Source of the DNA: Candidatus Poribacteria bacterium
Lineage (GTDB): Bacteria > Poribacteria > WGA-4E > WGA-3G
Reading direction: 5' to 3'
Assembly (NCBI GenBank): GCA_028820845.1
Contig: JAPPII010000010.1
Span: 15,537-79,536 of the forward strand
DNA: 64,000 nt
In this document: positions 42,321 through 63,574 of the stretch, piece after piece
Numbering within the stretch: position 1 is the stretch's first letter
How the letters are laid out: every line of letters begins with the position of its first letter
Made by a program: the position numbers and the translations under genes
The notes under the pieces: model-generated
Told to the model about the DNA's origin: nothing
Seen by the model: only the letters and a program-made list of their open reading frames with translations
Databases searched by the model: none

Positions 42321-43418
42321 ATGGCAGACTATCAAGATAAAGGTTCTCAGATTCGAGTGACAAACCTTGAGGCTTTCCCAATGGGTGTGAAAGCATACGT
42401 CAAGATTGAAACGAACATGGGGGTTACAGGTTGGGGCGAGATTAACAACATGGAGACAACCGTCACTTGTGCGTTGGCACGCTCCTTGTCGGAACTGATT
42501 ATCGGAGAAAACCCGACGCGGATTGAGCATCACTGGCAACGCCTCTTCCGCGCACACCGAAACATCCGAGGTGGCGGTTTGATGGTGCATACTATCTCCG
42601 CGATTGATATGGCGTTGTGGGATATTGCTGGAAAGTTGTGGGGCGTGCCGGTGTATCGCCTGCTCGGCGGTCCCTGCCGAGATAAGATTTGGAAGTATCC
42701 GAGTCCGAAAGCGATCAAGACGGGACCGGGAGGTTCCAAACCTTTTGCTGGCACCCCCGATGAAATCGCCGATTTGGTGCAGCGCGTGCGGGATGCACGA
42801 GAGAAGGTCGGTTCCGACGGTGCAGTCATGTTTGACGCGCATAGCTGCCTACCGCCCCCTATCGTCAAACAGTTCGCCAGTTATCTGCAACCCGATGACC
42901 TGCTTTTCTTAGAAGAGGCGTGGGTGCCGGGCAACATTGAAGTGATGCGTAAGATCCGAGAGTCAGTCCCTGTCCCCTTAGCGACGGGTGAGCGCGATCG
43001 CACAATATGGGAGGTCCGCGAAATCCTTGAGGCGCAGGTGATTGATATCCTTCAACCCGATGTCGGACACGGCGGCGGTATTACACAGGTTAAAAAAGTC
43101 GCTGCGCTCGCCGAGGCGCATCACGTCCCGATCGCACCACACTGCACGATGTCCTACCTCGGTCTCACCGCAAGTTTTCACCTATCTGCTGCAGTGCCGT
43201 TTTTCCTGATCCACGAGGGTTATGAAAACGTCCTTCCAGACGGAGTCGCCCACAAAACGTGGGAGATGGATGAGGAAGGCTACGTTTCGCTGCCAGAAGG
43301 CCCCGGTTTAGGTGTTGAAGTAGATGAGGCAAAAGTGATTGAAGTCGGTCAAGAGGCGGGAAGGCGGTTTACTTGGCCCGATAATAGATTAGCGGATGGC
43401 TCCATCGCGGATTATTAG
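42321..43418 (+). CDS. Enolase-superfamily enzyme (mandelate racemase / sugar-acid dehydratase subgroup)
   Basis: KIETNMGVTGWGE capping region. MFDAHS, LEEAW, ATGER metal-ligand contexts. DVGHGGGIT. Confidence 0.85.
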   Translation: MADYQDKGSQIRVTNLEAFPMGVKAYVKIETNMGVTGWGEINNMETTVTCALARSLSELIIGENPTRIEHHWQRLFRAHRNIRGGGLMVHTISAIDMALWDIAGKLWGVPVYRLLGGPCRDKIWKYPSPKAIKTGPGGSKPFAGTPDEIADLVQRVRDAREKVGSDGAVMFDAHSCLPPPIVKQFASYLQPDDLLFLEEAWVPGNIEVMRKIRESVPVPLATGERDRTIWEVREILEAQVIDILQPDVGHGGGITQVKKVAALAEAHHVPIAPHCTMSYLGLTASFHLSAAVPFFLIHEGYENVLPDGVAHKTWEMDEEGYVSLPEGPGLGVEVDEAKVIEVGQEAGRRFTWPDNRLADGSIADY

Positions 43419-43461
43419 AATTTCCCATCATAGTGTTCTGTCACATCTAAACTGAGAGGTA

Positions 43462-43522
43462 GTTCGTAGTAGGGCAATTCATTGCCCGTTTCTGACGTGC
43501 GATAAATCGCACTACTACGAAC
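43462..43522 (+). other. 61-nt element predicted to fold as a three-way junction
   Basis: 11-bp outer stem gttcgtagtag/ctactacgaac enclosing two 7-bp hairpins, gggcaat-tc-attgccc and gtgcgat-aa-atcgcac. Confidence 0.5.
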
Positions 43523-43612
43523 CAGGGTTTCCCCATCATTTGAAGGTTGACAGACTAATAGTTATAGGAACACTTTGATGAGGTAAAAAAATAATTCGGT
43601 AGTGTTCCAACT

Positions 43613-43678
43613 CTGGATGCCCGAACTTGTTCGGGGCTGTTTCGCTCACCCGCGTCCCAACAAGTTGGGGCATCCAAG
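43613..43678 (+). repeat. REP-like doublet of the palindromic unit GGATGCCCGAAYTTRTTCGGG
   Basis: ctggatgcccgaacttgttcgggg...cccaacaagttggggcatccaag. The two halves are inverted copies of each other. Confidence 0.8.
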
Positions 43679-43809
43679 AAAATTATCGATCCCTCTATGT
43701 ATTCCTCTATTTCCCTCCATAGCAAAAAATTTTGCATAAAAATTCATTTTATGCAACCTTTCCACCCTTAAAATCCCACTTAACATCACAAGGCAATATT
43801 CTTTAGGAG

Positions 43810-46803
43810 ATGGTCATGAAAAACGACGATATTGATCTGATTCATCGTATCTTGTCAGGTGATGAAGATGCGTTCACTACATTGATGCAAAAGCACCGAC
43901 GTTGGGTGTATTCACTTGCATGGCGTGAGATTGGTGATTTTCACGCGGCGCAGGAGATTACGCAAGATACCTTTATCCAAGCTTTTAAGTCGCTGCCGAG
44001 TTTAAGAGATCCGAATCGTTTTTCTGGGTGGTTGCATGCGATAGCGAAGCGTCAATGCGTTGCGTGGCTACAAAAGAAGCCGATTGCGATGCAGTCCCTG
44101 GATACGCTGCCGAAAGCCGAATTGGAACAGTTGTTTTATACACAGTACCTTGAAGAGGAACGGATACAGGCATCAACGGCTGATTTGCGAGAAGTTGTGG
44201 AATATCTCCTGCAAAAGTTACCCGTTGGTGAACGTTCTGTAATGGTTCTGCACTATTACAAAGGCTTGACCTGTGAAGAGATGAGTGAGCGTTTAGAGGT
44301 GTCGTTGAATACAGTGAAAAGTCGTTTATATCGTGCAAGGAAGCGATTAGAGAAGGAGGAATCAATGCTTCGAGAAAACGTCGGTCCGAACCTATTGAGA
44401 AGTGAGCCGCGCCGCGTTGACATTCAGACGACTGCGGCAACGGAAACGGGTGATCATTTGGCAGAAGGCGGTTTTAACTTCAACCAAACTTCTAAGGTCT
44501 TTACATCTTCTGGCTTTCACACGAAAGGTTGGGGTGGCGGCGATCCATCGCCGATGTACATGTTACTGCACTATCTCACCCACGGTTGGATTGACCTTTT
44601 TAAATTTCCTTTGGTTTCGGGTAGTTCGTGGGAACAGGAAGGCGGTTGGAAATCACGAGGGACAGCAACCGTTGAGGCTTATGAAACGGTAAATGTATCC
44701 GCGGGCACTTTTCCAATGTGCCTGAAGCATAAGACTGTTTTCACGGATGCTGATGTAGAAGATACCAACGCTGAGTTGCGAAGTGCGCTTGTAAACGGGA
44801 CGCGTTATCTGTGGTTTGCCAAAGGTGTTGGACTCGTGAAGATGCGTTATGAACATTCCAACGGTGTCGCAACAGAAGCCGAATTGCTTAAATACGAAAC
44901 GCCGACGCAGCAAGGCGAAACGTACTTTCCTGTTCAGATAGACACGCAGTGGACATACAAGTGGCATAATACCTATCGCGATAAAGCGGTTATTGAGGTG
45001 TGGCGTGTCATCAGGAATTTCCGTCAACTTGAGGATGCTGGTAACCCGGTGCAACTTGAATCGGCAAGATATGAGGTCAGTGTTGATGCGAATGAGCCGC
45101 GCGTAGCGAATGTCAAGTGTATCCTAACGCCAAAAAGCGGCGGTGGTACGAAAAATGACCGAAAGCGTTTGTTTTTTTCTATGAGTCGTTTTGGTACCGA
45201 TTGGTTGTACGATGGATATGCCCGTTCTCTTAGAGATGTGACGGCTACTGATGCGAAAGGTAAAGCACTGGTTGTAGAAGAGATTGCCAAAACGCAGTGG
45301 GTCGTTGAAACACGTGATGCATCGCCTGTGACACTCCAATACAAAGTGTTGCTGGATCACGATGAACGGGATTGGCCCTTTGGTAGAGACGAAGCTCCGT
45401 ATGCCCAAGACGATTGTATTTTCTGGCCCGGATATGCGCTGTTTATCGTTGGTGAGGTGGACGATATTGAACTGTCTGTTGATGTACCTGATAATTGGTC
45501 CGTCTCGACCCCTTGGGAGCGGATTGAACCCAACGGACACCGTTTTGTTTGTAAAAATCAAGACGATCTGATGTATGCGTACCTCGTGCTTGGTGAACAT
45601 TCTGAGCGTCTGGTAAGTTCAGGAGAGGCAGAGATTGTGCTTGCACTGGGGGGACGCTTTAAAGCTTCAATGGATAAAGTTGCGTCTGCTGTCGAGGCAA
45701 TTCTACAGGCATATTCAGGCATATTTGGTGGAACCCCGAAAGGCAGCATGCTATTTGTCATGAATCCTTATGGCGGGGAAGAATACCGCAGCGGTGGGGC
45801 ATCAGAAAGAAGCATCACGGCTCTGATCGGTGGCGCATTGGACGACGGCAGAGCGGATTTTTGGGGACCCTTGGTTGCAAATGTGATTGGTTATATCTGG
45901 AACGGAAAAGTTATTCATTTTGCTGAGCAGGAGTATGGGTTCAGCGAAGTTAATGAACAGGAGTATTGGTTCAGCGAAGGTTTCAGTAAGTATTATTCAA
46001 GTGTTATCTGTACTCGCCTCGGACTTATTTCTGAAGGCGATTTTCTCAGGAGTCTTGAACTTGCATGGGAATCGTATCTGTCTCAACAGGGCGAACGCTC
46101 CATTCGAGAGGCCGGTGAAGATAAATTAGCCAATCGAGAACTCGTCTACGACGGTGGGCGTTTAATCGCTGCCGCACTGGATTTACAGATTCGTAATCTA
46201 ACGAAAAATCGAAGCAGTTTGGACGATGTGATGCAGCAGATGTATCGAGAGTTTGGTCTCACCGATACTGCGTACACGATGGACGATGTCATCAGGATCG
46301 TCAGCCAAGTTGCGGGTGAAAACTTTGAACCTTTCTTCAGCAAATACGTGACGGGGACGGAAAGGTTACCGTTAGAGGAATACCTTAAGGACGTGGGTGT
46401 GGATGTTGAGATAGACCTTGGAGAACGGCTCCCGAAACTTGGGTATATCATCCATGAAATGCTGGGTATCGGTTCATTTGGGGGACCGCCGGGTGGCGGC
46501 ATGTTCATCCATCGATCCCGAAAGTTTCAGGATGATGACAGGCTGATAGGTATTGACGGCACACCGGTGAAGACGCGTGACGACATTAGAAGGGCTGCCA
46601 AAGATTGGAAATCTGGGGATGTGGTGAGGTTGACACTTGAAAGAGAGGGAGCAGAGATTGTCTTGCCTGTTACATTAGAAGGGGATCCGTCTAAAGAACC
46701 GCCATTGGAGTCGGATGTTACTGATGTCGCTATTAGAAAAAAAACGGATAACACAGAGTCGCAACGTGCAATTTGGTCGGGAATCTTAGGTGAGGATCAG
46801 TGA
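43810..46803 (+). CDS. ECF sigma factor fused to a ~800-aa C-terminal extension (unassigned region, catalytically degenerate M61-like peptidase, PDZ)
   Basis: Sigma region 2 (DEDAFTTLMQKHRRWVYSLAWREIGDFHAAQEITQDTF) and region 4 (LPVGERSVMVLHYYKGLTCEEMSERLEVSLNTVKSRLYRARKRL). This is followed by a continuous ORF with the M61-like WFSEGFSKYY box, ANVIGYIW in place of HExxH, and a terminal PDZ-like segment (GIDGTPVKTRDDI...GDVVRLTLEREG). The ATG at 43816 has better SD spacing. Confidence 0.8.
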   Translation: MVMKNDDIDLIHRILSGDEDAFTTLMQKHRRWVYSLAWREIGDFHAAQEITQDTFIQAFKSLPSLRDPNRFSGWLHAIAKRQCVAWLQKKPIAMQSLDTLPKAELEQLFYTQYLEEERIQASTADLREVVEYLLQKLPVGERSVMVLHYYKGLTCEEMSERLEVSLNTVKSRLYRARKRLEKEESMLRENVGPNLLRSEPRRVDIQTTAATETGDHLAEGGFNFNQTSKVFTSSGFHTKGWGGGDPSPMYMLLHYLTHGWIDLFKFPLVSGSSWEQEGGWKSRGTATVEAYETVNVSAGTFPMCLKHKTVFTDADVEDTNAELRSALVNGTRYLWFAKGVGLVKMRYEHSNGVATEAELLKYETPTQQGETYFPVQIDTQWTYKWHNTYRDKAVIEVWRVIRNFRQLEDAGNPVQLESARYEVSVDANEPRVANVKCILTPKSGGGTKNDRKRLFFSMSRFGTDWLYDGYARSLRDVTATDAKGKALVVEEIAKTQWVVETRDASPVTLQYKVLLDHDERDWPFGRDEAPYAQDDCIFWPGYALFIVGEVDDIELSVDVPDNWSVSTPWERIEPNGHRFVCKNQDDLMYAYLVLGEHSERLVSSGEAEIVLALGGRFKASMDKVASAVEAILQAYSGIFGGTPKGSMLFVMNPYGGEEYRSGGASERSITALIGGALDDGRADFWGPLVANVIGYIWNGKVIHFAEQEYGFSEVNEQEYWFSEGFSKYYSSVICTRLGLISEGDFLRSLELAWESYLSQQGERSIREAGEDKLANRELVYDGGRLIAAALDLQIRNLTKNRSSLDDVMQQMYREFGLTDTAYTMDDVIRIVSQVAGENFEPFFSKYVTGTERLPLEEYLKDVGVDVEIDLGERLPKLGYIIHEMLGIGSFGGPPGGGMFIHRSRKFQDDDRLIGIDGTPVKTRDDIRRAAKDWKSGDVVRLTLEREGAEIVLPVTLEGDPSKEPPLESDVTDVAIRKKTDNTESQRAIWSGILGEDQ

Positions 46804-46823: not shown

Positions 46824-48350
46824 ATGCATACACTTTGGCTAATTATCCAACGAGAATTCGTCTCAAATGTGTTGACATCCCGATTTATGATTGGGTTTAT
46901 CGTGTGTCTGCTTTCAACTGCCGTTGCTGTTTTCGTCCAAGTGGACGATTACGAAAAACGTTTGGCGGGATATAACACCGCGATACGGGAGGCACAAGAG
47001 GAAACTCGGACATGGGAGCTCTATGTTGACATCAAGCCGAAAGCGCACCGAAAACCAAACCTGCTCGGAATATTTAACGTAGGGACAGAGAACTTCGGGG
47101 CAAATACGGTCACCGTTGAACTCTCAAAACCCATCTTTGAATTCATTACTTTCCCTATCTGGTTGCCCCCGACGCAAAAGCGGGGTTCAGACAACCCCTT
47201 CCTTGCCATGTTCCTGGCTGTTGATGTGGTTTTCATCTTCAAAATCGTTCTCAGTGCTTTGGCGATTCTGTTCGCTTACAACACAATTTCGGGTGAGAGA
47301 GAGGATGGCACGTTGAAACTTGTGTTATCCAATGCGGTACCGAGAGATGTAGTCGTGCTGGGGAAATACCTTGGTGGAATGTTATCGCTGTTTCCTATCA
47401 TCTTGGTGAGTTTACTCGTGGTCCTGTTAATATCTTTCGCTTCACCAGTTACCGCTTTTGATGGAAACGACATCGCACATATCATCTTAATATTTGGTGT
47501 TTCGTTGTTGTACGTGTCAACGTGGTATCTTTTAGGGTTTGTCCTATCCGTTTGGACGAAGGAAGCGGCGACAACGTTAATTCTTTCGATGTTTATTTGG
47601 GTGATTCTGACGAGCGTTCATTCAAATGTAGTGACGTTTGCAGTGGAGAAGTTCCCGCCACATCCATCTAAATCCGAACAGTCGGTCCTTCAGCCCGCCT
47701 TTGATGTCTGGGATCAGTTCAGAAAGGAACGGGATGCCTACGTTAAACAGCGGGGCTATGATGATTTGAAAGAGTCAATTACTTGGGAACCTGAGACATC
47801 TTCAACGGGAACGAGGTCTGGTTCTATGTCTGGGGGCTATTTCTTGACAGAGAGTTATAGCGTCAACAGTGTTAGTAAAGCGGATACCTCTATCTTCCAG
47901 GAGATTTTAGGCTATCAGGAACAACTTCGGGTTACATACGCGAACAAAGCGGAGGAAATTCTCAAAGAACCTGCGGAAATTCGAGAGCGAAATGTGAGAT
48001 TCGCAGACGCGCTCTCGCGTATTTCCTTCGCGGATGTTTATAATTTCGCTGTTGGTGCGATAGCGGGGACCGATCGGCAGCGTTATAACGATTTTATTGC
48101 CGACTCCAGAGCCTATAAACGCGAGATTGTTGAGTATTTGAAGGATAAGAAGGCGTTTTCGTCGCGAGCATGGTTTTCCACGGATAAGGGTGCTGCGGAA
48201 TTGACAGATTTACCGGTTTTCAAGCATCGGCGGCTTTCCCTTTCTGAAAGTTTTTCACAGGCATCAATGGATGTTTTGATATTGTTGGCGTGGAATATTG
48301 TTCTGTTCATGACGGCTTATGTATCCTTCCTACGGTATGATATGAGTTGA
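46824..48350 (+). CDS. ABC-2-type permease-like polytopic protein with long C-terminal soluble region (paralog 1 of 4)
   Basis: ISGEREDGTLKLVLSNAVPR motif. N-terminal helix, loop, TM bundle, ~200-aa soluble region, final TM. Confidence 0.75.
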   Translation: MHTLWLIIQREFVSNVLTSRFMIGFIVCLLSTAVAVFVQVDDYEKRLAGYNTAIREAQEETRTWELYVDIKPKAHRKPNLLGIFNVGTENFGANTVTVELSKPIFEFITFPIWLPPTQKRGSDNPFLAMFLAVDVVFIFKIVLSALAILFAYNTISGEREDGTLKLVLSNAVPRDVVVLGKYLGGMLSLFPIILVSLLVVLLISFASPVTAFDGNDIAHIILIFGVSLLYVSTWYLLGFVLSVWTKEAATTLILSMFIWVILTSVHSNVVTFAVEKFPPHPSKSEQSVLQPAFDVWDQFRKERDAYVKQRGYDDLKESITWEPETSSTGTRSGSMSGGYFLTESYSVNSVSKADTSIFQEILGYQEQLRVTYANKAEEILKEPAEIRERNVRFADALSRISFADVYNFAVGAIAGTDRQRYNDFIADSRAYKREIVEYLKDKKAFSSRAWFSTDKGAAELTDLPVFKHRRLSLSESFSQASMDVLILLAWNIVLFMTAYVSFLRYDMS

Positions 48351-48365
48351 AAGGAGGAGAGACGA

Positions 48366-49817
48366 ATGATTCTACACATTGCGACGAAAGAGATACATCA
48401 CAATCTCACGACCCTCCGATTTGCCTTGATGATTATTCTTTTGCCTCTCCTGTTTTTGGCGAACGCGTTGATATACAGTTTAGGCGGTTACGGCTATACC
48501 ACGCAGATTAATACCTATAATCGACAGGTGGAACAGAAGAGAAAGCATATTAAAAATCACGCGGATACGAGTTTGGCGGAGTTAGCACTCAGGGGCCCTG
48601 GAGAGATTCCGAAGTTTCCGAGCCCAATGACTTTCTGTGCGGATGGAACTGATGAGCTCGTCCCGCGTTTTGTCAAGATGACCGGCGAAGGATCGTCCAG
48701 CCGCAGCGGTCAGAATCAAACTGAGGATTACGGATGGACACCGCCGTGGACACTGGAGTATCCTTTGCAGAGTAAAGTCGGGGGCGCGATGCAGCGGATT
48801 AAGATTGACTGGGTCTTCATCGGGGGCCTCATGAGTTTCTTTGCGATTTTATTCACTTTTGATGCGATCGCTGGGGAGAGAGCCCGCGGCACGCTGAGCC
48901 TCATAATGTCTAATACTGTCTCGCGCAGCCAAGTGTTATTAGGTAAATACCTCGGAGCGTTTTTGACCCTTATGGTTCCACTTGTAATTGGTATCCTGAT
49001 GAACCTGTTGTTTATCCTTATTTCCCGGAATATTCCTTTTGCGTCGAGTGAGTGGTTGCGAGTTTTGGGGATGGTCGGGTTGTTTGCATTACACGTCTCT
49101 GTTTTCATCTTTCTCGGGTTGTTTTTCTCAAGTCGGGTTTCAAACGCAATCACAAGTTTAGTATGGCTCTTATTGACTTGGGTCTGCTTGGCGTTCGTAT
49201 TTCCGAGTCTGCTTGGGACTTTTGTTGGCAATCTAAATCCGATTCCCTCCGTTGACGAAGTGTCAATGCAGAAAGATGTGCAGTTAAAACAGTTGAGAGA
49301 TGAATACCGACCTTTTGGTGGGTCAGAATCTAAGTTAAGGAAGGCAGCAGCCATCGAGAATCCCGAAGCAACGCGACGCTGGGCGACCTACCTCACCAAA
49401 GAGATAGAGACGAAAACTCGATTTAATGATGGACAAATCGACCAGCAGTTTAAGCAGGTGCAGCTCGCCCGAGATATTACTCAAATCTCACCGATAACGA
49501 CCTTCCAGTATGCAATGGAAGGACTTGCGAATACCGGCATCGTCAGTTATATGAATTTCGTCAAACAGGCGCGCCGTTATCGACAGACGTTCATAGATTT
49601 CATCGAAACCGAAGATCAGAGCGATCCGGAGAGTCTACACATCTATCCTGTAAAAGAGGGGTTGTCGCAGAAGCCGGTGAATCCAGCGGCGGTGCCGGTG
49701 TTCACAGAGCATATCTCGTATCGGAGTGTGTTATCTCAGGTCGGTTTGTTGGTGTTGTTTAATCTGCTATTTTTTATTATGGCGCAGGTTTCTTTTTTGA
49801 TGAGTGAGGTAAAATAG
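48366..49817 (+). CDS. ABC-2-type permease-like polytopic protein (paralog 2 of 4)
   Basis: IAGERARGTLSLIMSNTVSR motif. Same topology as 46824-48350. Confidence 0.75.
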   Translation: MILHIATKEIHHNLTTLRFALMIILLPLLFLANALIYSLGGYGYTTQINTYNRQVEQKRKHIKNHADTSLAELALRGPGEIPKFPSPMTFCADGTDELVPRFVKMTGEGSSSRSGQNQTEDYGWTPPWTLEYPLQSKVGGAMQRIKIDWVFIGGLMSFFAILFTFDAIAGERARGTLSLIMSNTVSRSQVLLGKYLGAFLTLMVPLVIGILMNLLFILISRNIPFASSEWLRVLGMVGLFALHVSVFIFLGLFFSSRVSNAITSLVWLLLTWVCLAFVFPSLLGTFVGNLNPIPSVDEVSMQKDVQLKQLRDEYRPFGGSESKLRKAAAIENPEATRRWATYLTKEIETKTRFNDGQIDQQFKQVQLARDITQISPITTFQYAMEGLANTGIVSYMNFVKQARRYRQTFIDFIETEDQSDPESLHIYPVKEGLSQKPVNPAAVPVFTEHISYRSVLSQVGLLVLFNLLFFIMAQVSFLMSEVK

Positions 49818-55211: not shown

Positions 55212-55321
55212 TTTTTGGTCTCCTTTGTTTGTGTAACCTGAAGGATGTTGTATCCCTTCATTCTATTTTTTCGTAGGGTTACCGAGAGATATACTGACTT
55301 ATGTTTATAGTGACGCGTTTT

Positions 55322-55349
55322 GAAGGCAAAAAGGTTGCATTATTTTTTT
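55322..55349 (-). promoter_or_regulatory. ECF-type promoter candidate TGCAAC-N18-CGTC upstream of the lipoprotein/ATPase/repeat-protein/TolC operon
   Basis: Minus strand reads aatgcaacctttttgccttcaaaacgcgtcact, near-identical to the element at 63538-63564. Confidence 0.55.
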
Positions 55350-62049: not shown

Positions 62050-63381
62050 TTACCGAATGGAAATTTGTGCGTAAAAGGCGTTGGTACTTCCTTTTTCGCT
62101 CTGCCAATCGCTTGCAGCTCCCAATCGAAAGGCTTGCCCCTTGTCAAATTGATAGGTGATTGTTCCTGTACCACCGGGTGGGATTCCCCACTGATGTGCA
62201 AGCGCATCGCTTGATCTACGTATGCCTCCCCTTGGAAGTTTGCTGTCGCCATCAAATAGGTCGAATGAACCCGCTGCTTCGCCGCTACCGACGCGAATGT
62301 CAATCGTTAACATCCCGCCGTCTTCAAACGCTGTGGCATCAATGTGGACAACGGTATAGTCCAGATGCCCGCTTTCCGGCATCCGAAAAAAGTCCAATAC
62401 CTCCATCTGCGTCTGCTGTGTTTCTTCTGTTAGCACTTCCGGGTCTTTTGCTTCGAGAGCTGCCATTCGGTGGGTATCTGCCCCTGGACTGGATCCGGTG
62501 TTTCTTCCCGGTGTATCTGTGCGACCGAGTTGGGTTTTCACGGCGGGTTTAACCTGCCTCATAGGTGCCGCAGGTGCCTCTACGATGTCAATTCTCATCT
62601 CCGAAGTCGCGTCTAAACTGTAGGGGTGCTGGAAATAGGTTATATATTCATTGCCCATTCCGAGGATCAGCAGTGCCACGATAGCAGTTGAAGCGGTTAC
62701 TGCCCAAGGGAGCTGGGGCGTGTTTCCTTTCGGTGGTGCAGGTTTGATGCCGCCTCCTTTGTCTTTCACGGCTTGTATGATGTTCTCAGTCAAATTTGGA
62801 GAGATCTGGAAGGTGCTGAGTGCCTCTTGAATCAAGGGTTCTTCCTTCTTCAAACGTTGACGGGCGCGACTGAGCCGACTCTTAATCGTATTGGCGGATA
62901 CCCCCAGAAACTTGCTAATTTCTTCACACGTCATCTCTCCGAAGTAGTAAAGTGTTATGATGGTGCGATCGCTCTCTTGTAATTTGGCAAGCAATTTTTT
63001 GACGACTTCTCGCTGTGCTTCAGTTACTGTTTTTGCTTGCTCATCTGCCACATGTTGGGAATAGGTGTCTTTTCCTTTTCTCATAAGGTCAATATCCTCC
63101 ACGAGTTGGGCATGCAGCCGTTTCTTCCGGAGCCGCGCAATGCAGCACCGGGTCACAATCACATATAGCCATCCCGGAAATCGCTCCAGTTCTTTCAGGG
63201 TTGCCAGATTTTGATGGACTTTCAGAAAGGTCTCTTGCGTAATATCTTCAGCGATATGGAAGTCCCCAATTTTGCGCCACGCGAGGGCGTGGACGTGTTT
63301 CTGGTGTTTTTTCACGAGCGTGGTGAAAGCGGTTTCATCGCCATCAAGTGTGCGGCGAATTAATTCAGCGTCATTTTGCAT
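62050..63381 (-). CDS. ECF sigma factor fused to a single-pass transmembrane anti-sigma-like module and an extracytoplasmic C-terminal domain
   Basis: Sigma regions 2 and 4 (DETAFTTLVKKHQKHVHALAWRKIGDFHIAEDITQETF; LQESDRTIITLYYFGEMTCEEISKFLGVSANTIKSRLSRARQRL), a TM helix (LPWAVTASTAIVALLILGMG), then ~200 further residues. Confidence 0.8.
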   Translation of the reverse strand: MQNDAELIRRTLDGDETAFTTLVKKHQKHVHALAWRKIGDFHIAEDITQETFLKVHQNLATLKELERFPGWLYVIVTRCCIARLRKKRLHAQLVEDIDLMRKGKDTYSQHVADEQAKTVTEAQREVVKKLLAKLQESDRTIITLYYFGEMTCEEISKFLGVSANTIKSRLSRARQRLKKEEPLIQEALSTFQISPNLTENIIQAVKDKGGGIKPAPPKGNTPQLPWAVTASTAIVALLILGMGNEYITYFQHPYSLDATSEMRIDIVEAPAAPMRQVKPAVKTQLGRTDTPGRNTGSSPGADTHRMAALEAKDPEVLTEETQQTQMEVLDFFRMPESGHLDYTVVHIDATAFEDGGMLTIDIRVGSGEAAGSFDLFDGDSKLPRGGIRRSSDALAHQWGIPPGGTGTITYQFDKGQAFRLGAASDWQSEKGSTNAFYAQISIR

Positions 63382-63537: not shown

Positions 63538-63564
63538 GACGCGCGTTGAGGAAAAATGGTTGCA
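63538..63564 (-). promoter_or_regulatory. ECF-type promoter candidate TGCAAC-N17-CGTC upstream of the sigma/anti-sigma fusion gene
   Basis: Minus strand reads tatgcaaccatttttcctcaacgcgcgtcatt, about 150 nt upstream of the ATG at 63381. Confidence 0.55.
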
Positions 63565-63574
63565 TAATTATATA

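Follow-up and report, generated by a model that had tools for sequence, protein, structure and literature searches.

What role can a sigma factor play when the same polypeptide carries some 800 further residues of a peptidase that has lost its catalytic site? The question is raised by one gene, at 43810–46803 on the plus strand, within the 64 000-nucleotide (nt) stretch of Candidatus Poribacteria contig JAPPII010000010.1 analysed here (the window, whose numbering is used throughout). An earlier reading of the DNA (the original prediction) had described this gene as an extracytoplasmic function (ECF) sigma factor fused to a cytoplasmic pseudo-M61 peptidase and a PDZ-like module, and that layout proved correct by Pfam, by alignment to solved M61 enzymes, by Foldseek and by a PDZ profile. 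We find that the fusion is genuine and phylum-wide in Poribacteria, and that its extension bears the signature of a pseudoenzyme kept by purifying selection. With somewhat better than even confidence, we further read the protein as a Poribacteria-wide autoregulated “one-component” ECF sigma factor, regulated in cis by its pseudo-peptidase extension.

Public annotation gives the protein only as “sigma-70 family RNA polymerase sigma factor”. The open reading frame (ORF) at 43810 is preceded by an AGGAG ribosome-binding site (43805–43809); because all orthologs, and the identical NCBI protein P0001 (995 amino acids, aa), start MKN(D/E)D, and given the placement of AGGAG, the likely true start is the ATG at 43816. 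The parts of the gene, all on the plus strand, are as follows.

43810–46803, plus strand: whole sigma-extension ORF, 997 aa, uninterrupted (995 aa from the probable true start, ATG 43816).
43882–44076, plus strand: sigma region 2, aa 25–89 (Pfam PF04542 Sigma70_r2, 1.4e-13).
44194–44349, plus strand: sigma region 4, aa 129–180 (Pfam PF08281 Sigma70_r4_2, 2.7e-15).
44365–44424, plus strand: junction or flexible linker between sigma region 4 and the extension, aa 186–205 (AlphaFold2 pLDDT below 50 at aa 186–201; frame continuous in all orthologs).
44425–45054, plus strand: LolA-like/DUF3108-like all-beta domain, aa ~206–415 (weak Pfam match to DUF3108_like; AlphaFold2; Foldseek).
45070–45573, plus strand: Peptidase_M61_N beta-sandwich, aa 421–588 (Pfam PF17899, 4.8e-11; PDB and Foldseek matches).
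45607–46389, plus strand: M61 catalytic-type body, thermolysin-like plus helical, aa ~600–860, predicted dead (Pfam PF05299, phmmer, Foldseek).
45880–45894, plus strand: former HExxH motif, now N691-V-I-G-Y695 (residue alignment to 4fgm and 8j9c; columns in 72 orthologs).
45925–45984, plus strand: two tandem 30-nt units encoding EQEYGFSEVN and EQEYWFSEGF, the second of which carries E723.
46402–46689, plus strand: PDZ domain, aa ~865–960 (sub-threshold Pfam PDZ_2; profile search; compatible AlphaFold2 secondary structure).

The N-terminal part has sigma regions 2 and 4 above the Pfam cutoffs, no match to region 3 and no sigma1.1, which is the domain content of an ECF (group 4) sigma factor. 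The NCBIfam superfamily model for ECF sigma factors (TIGR02937) matches at 87.7 bits against a cutoff of 42.9, while matches to the NCBIfam equivalog models all fall far under their cutoffs, and the nearest solved structures to the core are SigW, AlgU and RpoE. The core is joined to the extension by 15–20 aa that AlphaFold2 predicts to be disordered.

The M61 nature of the extension, for which a profile search had been suggested, is seen in Pfam matches to both the N-terminal domain and the peptidase body. The latter match (aa 696–765, 2.2e-7) begins only at position 13 of the Peptidase_M61 profile, consistent with a lost motif just upstream. In a phmmer comparison with PDB sequences the extension matches 4fgm at 3.7e-17, and the full-length AlphaFold2 model, built from a 72-sequence alignment, has a mean pLDDT of 68.7 and a predicted TM-score (pTM) of 0.48; its top Foldseek matches are the M61 structures 4fgm, 8j9c and 7xyo (probability 1.0), followed by M1 aminopeptidases. 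The PDZ similarity of the C-terminus also holds: a profile of the last 140 aa from 21 family members matches the PDZ domains of DegQ (2.3e-5), DegP, an RseP homolog, YlbL and MamP, and the single sequence matches Pfam PDZ_2 over aa 905–955 (1.7e-4) at 22.3 bits, below the gathering threshold of 27. The idea of a separately added module does not hold, since active, sigma-less paralogs share the same C-terminus, making the PDZ domain a native part of this M61 clade's architecture. The region of its carboxylate-binding loop (EMLGIGSFGG) varies among orthologs.

One domain had been overlooked. Between the sigma factor and M61_N lies a beta domain of ~210 aa, whose match to Pfam DUF3108_like is marginal in the window protein and significant in paralogs (3.8e-10). 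Modeled alone, it reaches a pLDDT of 85 and a pTM of 0.83, and Foldseek matches it to LolA3 (9tp6, 3e-5), 3bk5 and 3fzx, with E-values from 3e-5 to 5e-3 and TM-scores of only 0.40–0.42; its PDB matches include LolA3, a putative lipoprotein-sorting protein, DUF1329 and YmcC-like BF2203. We call it LolA-like/DUF3108-like, with reservations, on the strength of these models and matches. A word-indexed homolog search with this domain only gave mostly short fragments and missed the long proteins; it brought out stand-alone and lipoprotein forms and supplied sequences for the AlphaFold2 alignment. Four stand-alone homologs (P0288, P0289, P0298 and P0302) have lipoprotein-type signal peptides (e.g. 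...LVMASC...), so the domain would occur both exported and in the cytoplasm in Poribacteria.

Does the peptidase body retain any catalytic capacity? In alignment to solved enzymes, the zinc motifs of 4fgm (C-HEYFH-sWN) and 8j9c (A-HEFNH-SWNGK) fall on A-NVIGY-IWNGK of the window protein (aa 690–700, nt 45877–45900), with the substitutions H to N691, E to V692 and H to Y695. No intact HExxH emerges there after proper alignment, so that the dead motif of the original prediction is upheld, with its loss of His, Glu and His, for the window protein. It does not extend to the whole family: HExxH is missing from 71 of the 72 orthologs, and the sole exception (P0069, locus L034) has HEIGH together with the third-ligand Glu. 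Apart from that protein, the catalytic Glu column holds V, L, M or I in the aligned soluble fused orthologs. The third zinc ligand (E723 of the W-F-x-E-G-F motif, 45976–45978) is kept in the window protein and its subclade, and its column is Ala in 60 of the 72. The fused protein would not be expected to bind zinc or to cleave peptides.

The exceptional gene (L034:6004–8961, from the Poribacteria metagenome-assembled genome (MAG) CBDHGE010000001.1) has a complete HEIGH plus WFSEGF site and branches near the base of the fused clade. Its intact site could be either an ancestral retention, which would imply parallel losses elsewhere, or the product of gene conversion from a paralog.

Just beyond the former HExxH lies the predicted 30-nt tandem duplication, and it is real: a repeat search finds 45924–45949 and 45954–45979 to be 92% identical at a spacing of 30, while Tandem Repeats Finder did not report it. 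It is present in the window protein, P0003, P0004, P0007, P0054 and P0061 and absent from the closely related P0005, P0006, P0008 and P0066. Because of this patchy occurrence among close relatives, we take it for a polymorphic, slippage-prone repeat and not a sequencing error; the pattern suggests that slippage has repeatedly added or removed a unit in the loop that separates the former HExxH from the third-ligand motif. In another clade this position is taken by a 9-aa insert of unrelated sequence (IDIREGTGAI).

Lost catalytic residues and an internal duplication are also what might be expected if a lost stop codon, a frameshift or a mis-assembly had fused a decaying peptidase pseudogene onto a sigma gene. 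The search for the same fusion in other genomes, which the original prediction had proposed, speaks strongly against this. Among the matches listed, 120 clusters of 985–1010 aa, down to 66% identity, have the same set of sigma and M61 Pfam domains, and those that are named come from Candidatus Poribacteria. A scan of one genome per GTDB species gave 62 loci, of which ~55 have the fused ORF; the named records are all Poribacteria MAGs, many of them chromosome-level. Since the same continuous ORF recurs in ~55 independently assembled species genomes, it is not an assembly or frameshift artefact.

Nor does the extension look like decaying sequence. We calculated ratios of nonsynonymous to synonymous substitution (dN/dS) by the Nei–Gojobori method between the window gene and seven orthologs, and obtained 0.14–0.20 for the extension overall (0.08–0.30 for its individual domains) and 0.05–0.14 for the sigma part; mean pairwise identities are 0.71–0.74 for the extension domains as against 0.86–0.87 for sigma regions 2 and 4. 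We also selected the columns whose invariance reached 95% or more among 38 sigma-less paralogs with an intact catalytic site, and compared them with 50 fused proteins, in which 176 of these 209 columns (84%) are kept. The columns wiped out are H691 (16% kept), E692 (0%), H695 (0%) and E723 (24%), plus a few conservative hydrophobic swaps. Low dN/dS, retention of most invariant columns and losses targeted to the catalytic residues argue for a maintained pseudoenzyme under purifying selection rather than decay. With more than 100 protein clusters, chromosome-level assemblies among the species genomes, a dN/dS of ~0.17 and this degree of conservation, we reject the explanation by artefact or pseudogene as highly improbable.

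Where would such an extension act? The fused ORF has no predicted TM (transmembrane) helix or signal peptide, the highest 19-residue Kyte–Doolittle mean being 1.02, which agrees with the earlier claim that no TM segment is present. The protein is thus predicted to be cytoplasmic, and its extension would have to act in the cytoplasm.

What the sigma factor may transcribe is suggested by motifs found upstream of the gene and elsewhere in the window, given here with the genes to which they relate.

43745–43800, plus strand: candidate ECF-type promoter block upstream of the fused gene (TGCAACC at 43752–43758; –10-like element CCAC at 43776–43779).
46824–49817, plus strand: two ABC-2 family permease genes (508 and 483 aa), the first beginning 20 nt past the sigma gene stop.
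55211–49961, minus strand: convergent operon, comprising a 224-aa ORF, a DrrA-like ABC ATPase, a 787-aa protein and a TolC-like OEP.
55312–55340, minus strand: related motif ATGCAACC-N17-CGTC, upstream of the convergent operon (224-aa ORF/ABC ATPase/787-aa protein/TolC-like OEP).
62050–63381, minus strand: second ECF sigma factor (443 aa), core 45% identical to the fused sigma factor, TM segment at aa ~224–242.
63538–63565, minus strand: related motif ATGCAACC-N16-CGTC, upstream of the second ECF sigma gene.

In 51 of 57 loci the fused gene is preceded, at a distance of 56–103 nt, by the block, whose consensus is CATTTTATGCAACCTT...TTAAAA(T/C)ACGAC (TGCAACC-N17/18-CGAC); TGCAACC stands in all 51 and CGAC in 48, and the –10-like element is CCAC in the window and in L002. 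A search of the window with up to 3 mismatches allowed gives this block as the single match (1 against 0.00 expected), and no sigma-70-type promoter was called in 43300–43810. ECF promoters have an AAC/CGT architecture, and by this analogy the block looks like an autoregulated ECF promoter with a small regulon. In ~20 loci the motif also occurs downstream of the fused gene, before ABC-2 or other genes, and in ~10 loci with a longer gap the ABC-2 pair has its own copy. The related motif ATGCAACC-N16/17-CGTC has two matches in the window, both on the minus strand, against 0.08 expected. Because these sites resemble the fused sigma factor's own promoter, the paralogous sigma factors may share or cross-regulate promoters, and it is uncertain whether the site at 55312–55340 belongs to the fused sigma factor rather than to its paralog at 62050–63381.

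Two further features of the upstream region can be recorded. About half of the ortholog loci (e.g. L001:7950–7990 and L003) have a 38-nt insertion between block and start, in the 5′ untranslated region; it could form a hairpin, and it explains the two classes of promoter–start spacing (~64 and ~100 nt). As a candidate riboregulator it was rejected, since shuffled sequence folds equally well (z –0.62). Upstream of the block, the 390-nt intergenic region has several short inverted repeats at 43560–43690 (e.g. GGAACACT...AGTGTTCC; CCCAACAAGTTGGGG); the ortholog loci do not conserve this region.

The upstream neighbor of the fused gene in the window belongs to the MR_MLE enolase superfamily. Downstream, the ABC-2 pair is probably co-transcribed with the sigma gene, given the gap of only 20 nt, and in most loci this pair likewise comes after the fused gene or after its paralogs. 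No anti-sigma domain was recognisable by Pfam in the neighboring window genes, a search that divergent anti-sigma factors could escape. In other species the syntenic loci have one or two additional M61 genes, which come after the fused gene and before the ABC-2 pair and often overlap the fused stop codon. One type is soluble (e.g. L001:10966–13365, with HEICH) and the other carries a membrane anchor or signal at its N-terminus (e.g. L001:13458–16100, with HEVFH); both carry the LolA-like domain and PDZ. An active, HExxH-intact M61 paralog is found downstream in ~30 loci and in none of ~20 others, including the window, anywhere in which tblastn revealed no further M61 copy. In a rough neighbor-joining tree the soluble fused clade is monophyletic and sister to the soluble downstream paralog.

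Such operons bring to mind an extension that serves as a positive docking module in the manner of the TPR extension of ECF42, the dead M61/PDZ part or the LolA-like domain binding a partner that the sigma factor needs for activity; candidate partners are an active M61 paralog, the ABC-2 transporter and a lipid or lipoprotein-like ligand. Genes for paralogs of the same fold are co-operonic and translationally coupled with the fused gene in ~30 species, the LolA-like domain directly follows the sigma factor in several fusion families and in one of them stands alone, and extensions of the ECF42 type are essential for activity and thought to act by protein interaction (2022 review). Yet the paralogs are gone from the operon in the window's own clade, and the LolA-like assignment depends on a low Foldseek TM-score (~0.4); we regard docking as an unlikely account of the extension.

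Poribacteria have a series of fusions whose sigma cores are close relatives, arranged in islands in which the module [sigma-extension][X][ABC-2][ABC-2] is repeated; in this series the window protein is the member that is soluble and has a dead catalytic site. The simplest fusion adds just the LolA-like domain to the sigma factor (415 aa; 30 members; 60% identity to aa 3–403 of the window protein). One such gene, soluble (L067:6001–7248, P0159 family), is found on the L024 contig ~12 kb past the sigma-M61 gene; the island around it encodes two DUF3108_like proteins, a C-type-lectin protein, additional ABC-2 pairs, another ECF sigma factor and an OEP. Since the LolA-like domain directly adjoins the sigma factor and a sister family has nothing else, it may be the proximal regulator.

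Other members of the series span the membrane. Two (L055:5986–9309 on OZ241378.1, 1107 aa; L056:10–3243 on VXXH01000350.1, 1077 aa) run from sigma factor through a TM segment (~aa 226) to LolA-like, M61 and PDZ domains; their M61 site is intact (HEIFH plus WFSEGF), and this family is 53% identical to the window protein over residues 3–994. The soluble dead version L046 shares a chromosome record with L055, and L056 and L042 derive from one MAG. P0130 has sigma factor, TM segment, Big_5 and then M61 with RELFH, and P0154 has sigma factor, TM segment, LolA-like domain and then Big_5. The second sigma factor of the window has an extension of ~200 aa without a Pfam match, and the genes after it on the same strand, to 55460, encode a 589-aa protein (no Pfam match), an ABC-2 pair (491 and 527 aa) and a 562-aa protein (no Pfam match). 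As this sigma gene also leads an ABC-2 pair, the window holds two modules of ECF-with-extension plus ABC-2 pair. A proposed kinship of the 443-aa protein to a 442-aa protein encoded after the motif in L003 was rejected, there being no similarity between them; the 443-aa protein is the second ECF sigma factor itself.

In the TM-bearing relatives (L055/L056, P0130, P0154 and the second sigma factor of the window), where the M61 or other domain is extracytoplasmic, topology requires that the sigma factor be released by proteolysis. The 800-aa extension of the fused protein could likewise be an inhibitory tether or cap, with a signal-dependent cut in the junction (aa 186–205) freeing a minimal sigma factor. 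That junction is predicted to be disordered, and proteolytic release is one of three known mechanisms for extension-bearing ECFs (2022 review). Against it, the neighborhood has no conserved protease except the M61 paralogs, which the window lacks, characterised M61 members are mostly aminopeptidases, and strong purifying selection on a scaffold adjacent to the catalytic site, over 800 aa, exceeds the needs of a tether. We put the chance of such release as low.

The reading we prefer is cis-regulation by the pseudo-peptidase, by analogy with other extension-bearing ECFs. It is close to the original prediction, in which the extension was an in-cis sensor or anti-sigma module that might bind the C-termini of peptides; both that binding and the direction of any regulation are conjectural. 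The cytoplasmic extension would hold the sigma factor inactive (or activation-competent), and a ligand or partner in the former substrate groove and/or the PDZ domain would flip the switch. We infer a peptide-like ligand or partner, acting through the groove, the PDZ domain or the LolA-like domain; most plausibly it would be a peptide related to the substrate of the active downstream M61 paralogs. The active sigma factor would then transcribe its own operon from the TGCAACC...CGAC promoter, comprising the active M61 paralogs, where present, and the ABC-2 permease pair, and in the window it would probably also drive the convergent ABC ATPase/TolC-like OEP operon.

Several points weigh against this scheme. 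Contact between extension and sigma factor, or regulation of the one by the other, is hypothetical, the pTM of the full-length model being 0.48, and the identity of the ligand is conjecture. The M61 and PDZ domains may not be the regulatory element, as a sister family has the LolA-like domain alone after the sigma factor, and the carboxylate-binding-loop region of the PDZ domain is not conserved as a classic GLGF motif. The –10-like element of the window promoter is CCAC, not CGAC, and the presence in the same window of paralogous sigma factors with similar promoter motifs makes the assignment of a regulon ambiguous. Finally, the window and ~20 other species are without active paralogs in the operon, so that a logic of sensing the neighbors' substrate cannot hold locally in those genomes.

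A more specific version of cis-regulation, which we offer tentatively and consider rather doubtful, is that the sigma factor senses through a retired enzyme. A neighboring M61 gene would have been duplicated, fused and inactivated, and its product would now report occupancy of the groove or PDZ domain by cytoplasmic (possibly imported or self-made bioactive) peptides, inducing active M61 enzymes and ABC-2/TolC-type export. If this were so, the protein would have the first ECF extension to be derived from a peptidase and would be a cytoplasmic, single-polypeptide counterpart of the PDZ-gated sigma-E pathway, and the membrane-spanning paralogs with active peptidase (L055 type) would be evolutionary intermediates.

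How does the fused protein compare with known systems? The Poribacteria paralogs share their sigma-TM-extracytoplasmic topology with the membrane-spanning sigma/anti-sigma-like hybrids (ECF52 SCO4117, IutY-type and ECF01-Gob); the window protein differs from these in having no TM segment and a dead peptidase. With the M61 peptidases (the glycyl aminopeptidase family, 4fgm and 8j9c; the endopeptidase MfuP, 7xyo) it shares M61_N, M61 and C-terminal PDZ in the same fold, but it has NVIGY in place of HExxH, an extra N-terminal LolA-like domain and the sigma fusion. The characterised M61 enzymes are aminopeptidases and one lanthipeptide-cleaving endopeptidase, with which a peptide-related role of the extension would be compatible.

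The envelope-stress ECFs RpoE and SigW, with DegS and RseP, offer a further parallel, in that the window sigma core is nearest to SigW, AlgU and RpoE and the PDZ domain matches those of DegQ, DegP and an RseP homolog. In RpoE-type pathways, PDZ domains gate the release of the sigma factor by sensing peptide C-termini. In the window protein, unlike these pathways, the PDZ domain is in the same polypeptide and predicted to be cytoplasmic, there is no RseA-like anti-sigma factor and no active protease is attached; the resemblance is conceptual.

The closest counterparts are the ECFs with soluble C-terminal extensions, which are the sigma-factor equivalent of one-component systems and of which few types have been described and fewer understood. 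A search of the literature on Poribacteria ECFs, or on the pairing of ECF and pseudoenzyme, found nothing relevant. According to the main text of the 2021 ECF re-classification, ECFs with C-terminal extensions are typically without anti-sigma factors, a rule that the lack of a recognisable adjacent anti-sigma gene fits. The soluble extensions named there and in the 2022 review are SnoaL-like (ECF41/56/294/295), TPR (ECF42), CorE-type Cys-rich (ECF238) and DUF1835 (ECF264), a multi-TM type also being described, and neither that main text nor the review names a DUF3108-like/LolA-like, M61_N, M61 or PDZ type, in agreement with the original prediction that no ECF extension of the dead-peptidase and PDZ kind was known. 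Like these groups, the window protein has a sigma2 plus sigma4 core, a putative C-terminal cis regulator, no TM segment, no adjacent anti-sigma gene and an apparently autoregulated ECF-type promoter; unlike them, its extension is 800 aa as compared to 20–200 aa, and consists of a LolA-like domain, a complete dead M61 and PDZ. No other soluble extension seen here comes near it in size, and none of the others stems from an enzyme; it is conserved throughout an uncultivated phylum associated with sponges, and is a clean pseudoenzyme case, with four zinc-binding or catalytic residues lost and 84% of invariant positions kept. The same genomes offer a comparison series (sigma plus LolA-like, sigma plus dead M61, sigma-TM-active M61 and free active M61 paralogs) that, with the sharply defined promoter, makes the regulatory logic testable in a heterologous host. 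Within the class of extension-bearing ECFs as set out in that main text and review, the extension type is new, and it suggests that a former enzyme now serves its sigma factor as an in-built sensor or regulator.

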